From the NCBI GenBank assembly GCA_052327205.1, contig CM126204.1, positions 138,880,001 through 138,944,000 of the forward strand: a stretch of 64,000 bases of DNA. The letters are read 5' to 3'. The translations under genes were made by a program, and so were the position numbers. This DNA is from Somniosus microcephalus. Taxonomy: Eukaryota. The notes under the pieces are model-generated. The model saw only the letters and a program-made list of their open reading frames with translations, made no database searches and had not been told where the DNA came from. Of the stretch, positions 36,380-38,316 are shown in pieces. Numbering within the stretch: position 1 is the first letter of the stretch; each line of letters begins with the position of its first letter.

Positions 36380-37700
36380 CCAGATCTGTTCAAAACGTGA
36401 GCTGCAACAGGTACTTAAAAATGTGAACAAGGTGCAATAATTTAGATAATTGACGATTATAATTGATTTGCTCGGTAACTTTCAGTTTCGCAAACCCGAA
36501 TTGTCTCTGACACGACCTCCAATAAGAAGCGAAAAGGGAAACAGTCACAGCCTTATTTATCAATAATGTTGATTGGGACCAAATAAGCTTTTTAACTACT
36601 TCACATAGATTAGATTCACCAGTGAGTTGACTCCAGCATTTGTTAGACAAAGAAAAGGCCCTCGTCAAGCACTGTTGTTAACCATTCTGAGCAAGACTTA
36701 TGCCGGGATGATAGGTAAATTGCATGATTGATATCCCTAAAAGCACCTACAACTTTTTTTCCTCTTGCAAAATATTTAGACTTCATCTATCGTGAACTTG
36801 GAAGGTAGTGCAACGCAATAAACTCTTCTTGCGTTCAGTCTGCACGCTGCTTTCTGACACAGCGACCAACAGCAGCCACATGGGCGAGAGGAGACGCCTA
36901 CAGGTGCAACACGAGGAAAGCAGCAACTCGATTCCTTTTTGTGTGTGCAGAAGCCGTGCAACAACACTTGACAGCAAATCACTTTCATTTCACTATCTTT
37001 AACATTTAAAAAAAATCATAAGCTTCTGCAGCAACACTCATGCTGAAGAAACAATGAGTCGATTTTATTATGGGAGCAGCAATAATTCATATACATATAT
37101 ATATATATATAATAATGTGCATTTCCCATGTGTATTTGTAGAAGCCTCTTTTTAAAAGTTCCCCCGCACCCCCAACCACCACACTTTTGTTTGGTATGTT
37201 CACGCTTAAATCCCCCATCTGTGGCACAATTTTTATGTCTGTTGCCATTCCAATAAACCAACTTTTTTTTCTCTCAAAAAGACTGGTCTGGAAAAAAAGT
37301 GGGCGTTGACTGTGCCCCTGCCCAAGCCCACTAATGAATATTAATGAACGCATACGTCTGTCTCTCTCCTTGTCTAGATGAAGCAGTCACTATCAGTAGA
37401 CGGCTGTTTTTTTTTGTGTATGTGTGTGGTGGGGGGGGGGTTTGTTTGTGTGTGATCGAGGAGGAGATTTTTTTTGGGGTGGGGGGGAGGAGGGGGCGAA
37501 GAGTCGCTCTTGGAAAATAAAAGGAGAATAATAAAAAAAAAAGAGGCTTTTTTTTTTGCATTGATGATTCGCTTTCTTTTCAAAATTTTTTTATATAGCA
37601 AGTGTCTTCTCCAGTCGTGCATGCGAGAATCGGTGGACTATATTGCTGTGCGGCGGCCCGCTCCACCCTCAGTTCATCCAAGTGCAGGCAAGGCGAAGCC
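36380..37700 (+). promoter_or_regulatory. jag1: jag1 promoter and 5'UTR region (TSS not determinable from sequence)
   Basis: TE-free, CpG-enriched stretch ending at the start codon; CCAAT and GC-box-like motifs; the 5'UTR block CCAGTCGTGCATGC...AATCGG resembles my recollection of the mammalian JAG1 5'UTR. Confidence 0.6.
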
Positions 37701-37766
37701 ATGGGCATGGTTTGTAGAAGGATTTCACTCTTTGCTGCTCTCTGGCTTACCGTCTTGCGGACCCAG
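37701..37766 (+). CDS. jag1: Jagged1 exon 1 (signal peptide MGMVCRRISLFAALWLTVLRTQ)
   Basis: Strong Kozak context GCCATGG, hydrophobic signal peptide, donor CAG|GTAGGT, phase 0 into exon 2. Confidence 0.85.
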
Positions 37767-38004
37767 GTAGGTTTTGTGTGGATCATTCGCCTCTCGTAGT
37801 AATTTTAAAAATAAATCACTTTTTTTTAACACACTTTGTTGCAAATTGCAAACTTGTGCAGTTGTAATAATTTGCTCCTTATTTAAGATTACTTTCTCCC
37901 TATTTTTGCAATAGTTTAACTGCTCCACTCCGTTAGATAATTTATTTATATATATTTCCAATTGCATTTTCTTATTTTTTGTTTTTTCTTTCCACCACCA
38001 CCAG

Positions 38005-38316
38005 CTATCCCTGGCATCGGGGCAGTTCGAGTTGCAGATAAACTTTATGCAGAACATTAACGGCGAGTTGCAGAATGGGAATTGTTGTGAAGGGAGCAGC
38101 AGGAATCCCCAGGACCGCAAGTGTGTGCGGGCCCAGTGCGACACCTTCTTCAAAGTCTGCCTGAAGGAGTATCAGTCCCGCGTCTCCCCCGGCGGACCGT
38201 GCAGCTTCGGCTTCTCCTCCACCCCGGTCATCGGAGGCAATACCTTTAACCTGAAAGGCGGCGGCAGCAGCGGCAGTGAGCGCAGGATCGTGCTGCCCTT
38301 CAACTTCGCATGGCCG
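38005..38316 (+). CDS. jag1: Jagged1 exon 2 (C2/MNNL domain)
   Basis: [18 protein letters not shown]...[16 protein letters not shown]...[16 protein letters not shown]...[14 protein letters not shown]| acceptor, |GTGAGT donor; 312 nt. Confidence 0.97.

Follow-up and report, generated by a model that had tools for sequence, protein, structure and literature searches.

In the 64,000-nt stretch of Somniosus microcephalus DNA analysed here (the window), the leader of jag1 carries an upstream ATG, at 37621, within a block that is shared with mammalian JAG1 5' UTRs. We regard it as likely, on balance, that this ATG is an ancient, weak-context and leaky start, which diverts part of the scanning ribosomes and lowers Jag1 output. 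What selection has kept seems to be the start site together with its flank, and not the peptide or any one reading frame. The uORF of mammalian JAG1 has been described before, and a published antisense oligonucleotide (ASO) is directed against it; what is new is how deep its conservation reaches and that one AUG alternates between an overlapping ORF and an N-terminal extension. Searches of PMC and bioRxiv returned no report that follows the element beyond mammals, describes a change of its frame in fishes or profiles ribosomes on the JAG1 uORF. JAG1 was likewise absent from the main text of PMC13087467 and from the supplements of PMC13087467, PMC11057154 and PMC7253449, large tables possibly excepted.

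Judged by its protein matches, the host gene of the uORF is jag1 of a cartilaginous fish. Its exon 2 encodes an MNNL domain (Pfam, E 1.6e-37), with Jagged-1 in PDB and a shark jagged-1b (92%) as best matches, and over exons 1 and 2 together 102-115 of 126 residues are identical to those of the 15 elasmobranch proteins listed. The features of the leader and of the first two coding exons are as follows.

36687 to 36714, + strand: upstream non-coding exon A, 3' end, with a donor GT at 36715 (match by eye).
36869 to 36926, + strand: upstream non-coding exon B, part, joined to 37599 in one contig of another species (D); donor not located in the window.
37564 to 37566, + strand: ATG in frame with the upstream ATG, solely in leaders unspliced at 37599.
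37597 to 37598, + strand: alternative 5' UTR acceptor AG, used in D; exon sequence begins again at 37599, 22 nt ahead of the upstream ATG.
37610 to 37644, + strand: conserved block around the upstream ATG, sharing 28 of 35 letters with four mammalian JAG1 5' UTRs.
37618 to 37623, + strand: TGCATG (UGCAUG) hexamer holding the upstream ATG, a putative RBFOX-type word.
37621 to 37766, + strand: overlapping uORF, exon 1 part, with a weak-context ATG out of frame with the CDS.
37701 to 37766, + strand: jag1 CDS exon 1, signal peptide, with its ATG at 37701 and a second ATG at 37707.
37767 to 38004, + strand: intron between coding exons 1 and 2, GT..AG.
38005 to 38041, + strand: overlapping uORF, exon 2 part, to the TAA at 38039-38041.
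38005 to 38316, + strand: jag1 coding exon 2, MNNL.

Several other features of the gene were seen in the window. Of the 15 elasmobranch proteins listed, only those of rays have the CDS start of the window, MGMVC, and two in-frame ATGs (MGM, 37701-37709) open the CDS both here and in five ray genera, the listed sharks and skates having one. Later jag1 exons lie at about 50026-50091, 53830-54099, 54577-54639, 59574-59705, 60177-60302, 62276-62437 and 63361-63471, with one more near 61890, and the gene continues past the window end. A GC-rich minisatellite (38336-39063; 26 copies of a 28-nt unit, with G-runs on the transcribed strand) starts 20 nt after the exon 2 donor. Another minisatellite, at 7617-10015, has about 169 copies of a 15-nt unit and a strong C skew, and smaller arrays occupy 238-363, 929-1230 and 39130-39363.

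A preliminary description had placed the upstream ATG 80 nt before the main ATG and out of frame with it, and had the uORF read through the jag1 start and across the exon 1/2 junction to a stop at 38039-38041, giving 60 codons. All of these values were re-derived from the window and agree. The distance from 37621 to the main ATG at 37701 is 80 nt (80 mod 3 = 2), and splicing from the donor after 37766 to the acceptor at 38005 yields the 60 codons and the TAA. In the unspliced form a TAG is reached at codon 50, which is still beyond the main jag1 start. With no stop before the CDS start and a stop within the CDS, the uORF fits the sequence definition of an overlapping ORF (oORF), and an N-terminal extension (NTE), which takes an AUG in frame with the CDS, does not arise from this ATG in the window. 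The context of the upstream ATG is weak (T at -3, C at +4) and that of the main ATG is good. The ATG at 37564 would lengthen the uORF to 79 codons in leaders unspliced at 37599. An ATG with an open frame in the jag1 leader is ordinary by itself: an ATG was present in 93% of 5000 dinucleotide shuffles of 37599-37700, and the uORF frame was open in 46% of 5000 shuffles of 37624-37700. All three frames are open over 37624-37700, as they were in 4.3% of shuffles.

Contigs from two other species, D and E, which we presume to derive from RNA, bear on how this leader is transcribed. Mapping to the window covered 4 of 24 sequencing runs, among them two raw RNA runs assigned to the species whose DNA matched best. 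The spliced contigs of both species remove the intron 37767-38004 at GT..AG and cover the upstream ATG, with no difference listed over 37607-37633. One contig of D joins 36869-36926 plus 46 letters to 37599 (depth 15). A second is also joined to 37599 (depth 13), and its free end can be matched by eye to 36687-36712, in keeping with the donor at 36715. The contig of E is unspliced to 37571. Thus, the leader has alternative upstream exons, and the upstream ATG is present in every leader form seen in the contigs of the two species.

Exon A holds a small uORF of its own, of 3 codons (36700-36711), which after splicing lies 25 nt before the upstream ATG; its stop is kept in D, by eye, through a different codon. 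An ATG at 36708 overlaps this stop and is absent from the D contig. With exon A spliced in, that ATG would begin an ORF of 41 codons that crosses the jag1 start in the third frame. The order of a 3-codon uORF followed by the 60-codon overlapping uORF resembles the two-uORF leader of ATF4. It differs from the ATF4 arrangement in that the jag1 uORFs are only 25 nt apart, both contexts are weak and the extra ATG at 36708 lies between them; the ATF4-like isoform rests on one 60-nt contig of D.

The depth of the conservation was read from Fig. S3 of PMC12446204, which prints the JAG1 leader of human, monkey, rat and mouse over 60 nt around the uORF start. Over 37610-37644, ungapped, 28 of 35 letters of the window are common to all four lines, 15 of them consecutive, and by eye the human line agrees at 30 of 35. 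The sole ATG in these four lines of Fig. S3 sits inside the block. Its weak context (T at -3, C at +4) is the same in the window and in all four mammals, and the hexamer TGCATG at 37618-37623 is present in all four lines. The 28-letter pattern has one match in the window, as it must by construction, and none of 100 shuffles contained it with up to 3 mismatches; a scan of metagenomes gave one chance bacterial match and a scan of viral contigs gave none. On this comparison of letters, the match between the mammalian and window blocks is not ordinary by chance. Since the block is homologous and the gene orthologous, the window's element is an orthologue of the mammalian JAG1 uORF. The human block given in the preliminary description agrees with the printed lines of Fig. 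S3 of PMC12446204. A structured RNA element was rejected as the reason for the conservation, the block giving no fold signal against shuffles (z +0.7 to +1.8) and no Rfam match.

Indirect evidence on what the element does comes from the ASO experiments on mammalian JAG1. According to PMC12446204, ATXL100, ATXL212 and ATXL233 target the 5' UTR uORF. With the uORF start masked, JAG1 protein rose by about 22% and 44% in HEK293 cells and as much as 2-fold in mouse liver while mRNA stayed the same, and bile ducts were improved in Jag1+/- mice. A second ASO to the uORF region, ATXL101, was without effect there, and protein also rose with ASOs to other parts of the UTR. The main text of that paper describes no reporter, luciferase, ribosome-profiling, polysome or Kozak test, and PMC12822670 notes a failed replication of this class of ASO for another gene. 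The rise in protein with no rise in mRNA supports the proposal, made in the preliminary description, that an overlapping uORF may tune translation of Jag1.

The strongest competing explanation is that the block has been kept as a binding site, either an RNA site of the RBFOX type (UGCAUG) or for another protein, or a DNA promoter element, with the ATG incidental to it. A binding site would explain why the frame drifts freely, all three frames occurring in fishes. Most of the invariant core CGTGCATG (37616-37623), which includes TGCATG, is on the 5' side of the AUG, and the changes after the ATG relative to mammals are mostly non-synonymous. UGCAUG is, we assume, the RBFOX word, our sole printed support being the title of a reference. 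The hexamer stands 19 nt after the alternative acceptor used in D, and a second copy, at 36721, stands six bases into the intron after exon A. However, with 20 occurrences of TGCATG in the window, finding it twice here says little, and the acceptor AG at 37597 is, by eye, not matched at the corresponding position of the mammalian lines. The 37599 acceptor was also rejected as the cause of the conservation in mammals. The search of PMC and bioRxiv found no paper linking RBFOX to a site in the JAG1 leader, and the rise in protein with no change in mRNA, as given in the ASO sections of PMC12446204, also counts against a binding site. Since the ASO covers both the AUG and the UGCAUG, its effect does not separate ribosome diversion from blocked protein binding. 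Taken together, we judge the binding-site explanation to be rather unlikely, though it is the one that competes best with a leaky start.

The frame of the upstream ATG across vertebrates was read from protein records whose models extend into the leader, and the distances are therefore inferred from protein and not from DNA. Among 377 proteins, the start was canonical in 256 and extended in 34; a further 47 were truncated, 20 were odd in other ways and 20 lacked the anchor motif. By this route in-frame cases are easily seen, out-of-frame cases are mostly invisible and the species are not independent; the record counts show that all three frames occur, not how often. In the elasmobranch cluster, 2 of the 15 listed proteins (of 34 members; 14 species), both RefSeq records, use the upstream ATG as their own start, which there shares the frame of the CDS. 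Both start MRESVDYIAV: XP_078086471.1 of Mustelus asterias has 27 extra residues (81 nt) and XP_038662612.1 of Scyliorhinus canicula has 25 (75 nt). The two sharks reach frame 0 through different indels, one tracking the window's uORF frame to residue 23 and the other switching near residue 15.

Bony fishes gave all three frames. In Menidia and Oryzias melastigma the reading that runs into the CDS is RAC.NQR, which corresponds to the +1 frame of the window (82 nt, frame 1); in the model of the stickleback Spinachia it is PVH, the +2 frame of the window (83 nt, frame 2). The models of Pempheris (78), of jag1a of the electric eel (75), of jag1a of carp and goldfish (75) and, weakly, of Cynoglossus (78) begin in register with the ATG and are in frame, so that the in-frame state is found in 4 to 5 bony-fish models; the electric eel, carp, goldfish and Cynoglossus cases were picked by eye. 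The spacing from the ATG to the main start was 75-86 nt in all fish cases measured. The bonefish (Albula glossodonta) model starts MFKSEEYIRA and splices to exon 2; it would give a Jag1 with no signal peptide and is probably a prediction artefact.

In contrast to the fishes, none of 76 named tetrapod Jag1 proteins begins at the upstream ATG in frame; 58 have the canonical start, 16 are cut short or odd and 2 are unrelated model artefacts. The hamster model reads the third frame through the CDS start. If EPG directly follows the end of the Fig. S3 line, the hamster distance would be 146 nt in frame 2, and the uORF frame, followed by hand across the same join, would stop at signal-peptide codons 14-15. 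This suggests the same relative frame as in the window with a stop inside the signal-peptide codons, the spacing being 80 nt in the window versus about 146 nt in hamster and the uORF peptide having diverged.

These records indicate that the frame of the upstream ATG has shifted repeatedly in fishes. The preliminary description had proposed an overlapping uORF conserved from shark to mammal, with the same relative frame in human, and had named a frame that varies in alignments as grounds for refutation; its interpretation is supported in part. The conserved ATG stands, since its block is common to the window and mammals and traceable in bony fish, but frame and overlap vary: the ATG is in frame in Mustelus asterias and Scyliorhinus canicula, bony fishes show frames 0, 1 and 2, and the JAG1 uORF orthologues thus do not share one frame.

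It might be argued that the frame is truly fixed and that the in-frame and frame-1 records are assembly or annotation errors. Frame 2 is indeed found in the window, in D and E, in the stickleback model (83) and, indirectly, in hamster (146), and the other frames were read from protein records alone. In D and E it is kept by two cancelling indels, +1 at 37656 and -4 at 37699, by which the first main ATG is lost and the distance becomes 83; two further differences per exon piece in these contigs, not itemised, could shift the stop and not the overlap. Against a fixed frame, the two shark records arrive at frame 0 by different routes, the two atherinomorph fishes are both at 82, and carp and goldfish are both at 75; independent errors would not agree in this way. 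With frames 0, 1 and 2 across the fish records, a fixed frame was rejected, and we consider it quite improbable.

Still less probable is that the uORF encodes a functional, conserved peptide or microprotein. Ser4 and Tyr7 do recur in the elasmobranch, bonefish, electric eel and mammalian readings. However, 4 of the first 8 uORF codons differ from human, all non-synonymously, and the indels of D and E leave 13 residues in the middle of the uORF frameshifted. The uORF peptide belongs to no Pfam family, and its exon 1 part found no homologue among proteins of near length; against 1.84 billion representatives this part gave 4 hits, all multi-stretch, and the 2 examined were repeat proteins. A protein search with the main-frame reading of the jag1 leader found nothing. 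A conserved-peptide uORF was therefore rejected, as both peptide and frame vary.

Finally, that the ATG is missing from the mRNA of the window species, or is inert and conserved as a relic, has the least to recommend it: its context is weak and two raw RNA runs gave no read on exon 1, but these runs are nearly without jag1 reads at all (exon 2 depth <5, most mapped reads being poly-T/poly-C artefacts at 37966-38003), the ATG is part of the spliced D and E contigs, and mammalian mRNA records carry it at nt 336, 249 and 130.

For the leaky start that we favor, the expected course of events is as follows. A minority of ribosomes would start at 37621 and pass both 37701 and 37707 out of frame, unable to reinitiate, and the remaining ribosomes would continue scanning to 37701, where the context is good. 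Diversion would be expected in both out-of-frame registers. In the fishes whose indels bring the ATG into frame, Jag1 would gain about 25 residues before the signal peptide, moving its hydrophobic core from about residue 6-8 to 31-36, and repression would probably be lost. The signal recognition machinery probably still reads such an extended signal peptide, and thus the brake is likely released when the ATG is in frame.

The weak, conserved context and the 1.2- to 2-fold effect of the ASOs, as reported in the ASO sections of PMC12446204, fit a modest brake. Against a brake is the observation that the in-frame lineages keep the ATG, though out-of-frame repression is dispensable there. A conserved start with a neutral, freely evolving coding part is the norm for uORFs, N-terminal extensions being the most depleted class, in the account of these classes in PMC7889888. 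What sets jag1 apart from the oORF and NTE classes is that one orthologous AUG is an oORF in some species and an NTE in others, over a range from cartilaginous fish to mammals. The closest known system, the mammalian JAG1 uORF, is like that of the window in its 35-nt block, single ATG, weak context and gene; conservation is shown only to monkey, rat and mouse in PMC12446204, which describes neither mutation of the uORF nor the frame changes in fishes.

Human genetics also bears on this leader. A de novo JAG1 variant, c.-100C>T, was found in Alagille syndrome and lowered reporter protein by 70-80%, mainly at the protein level, with no mechanism given (PMC9546130), and in the passage of PMC7862053 that treats it the same change is termed a promoter variant with lower mRNA. 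The distinction between the AUG and the UGCAUG bears on the reading of 5' UTR variants such as this one and on drug design. In the human leader, c.-100C>T may create a second AUG, of better context, in the same uORF frame. JAG1 is dosage-sensitive, and an antisense approach to Alagille syndrome is aimed at the upstream AUG. The natural leaders with the ATG in frame, in frame 1 and in frame 2 are ready-made reporter material.

Conservation to cartilaginous fish suggests that the site matters, and the changes of frame suggest that it is the start site and its flank that matter, not the peptide. Going further, it is possible, though we put this forward as a tentative and somewhat doubtful extension, that one AUG serves as a dial for Jag1 dosage throughout jawed vertebrates. 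Indels would flip it between a brake, when it is out of frame, as in many fishes and apparently all tetrapods, and a start for a longer signal peptide with the brake released, when it is in frame, as in two carcharhiniform sharks and several bony fishes; c.-100C>T would then add a stronger AUG to the same frame.
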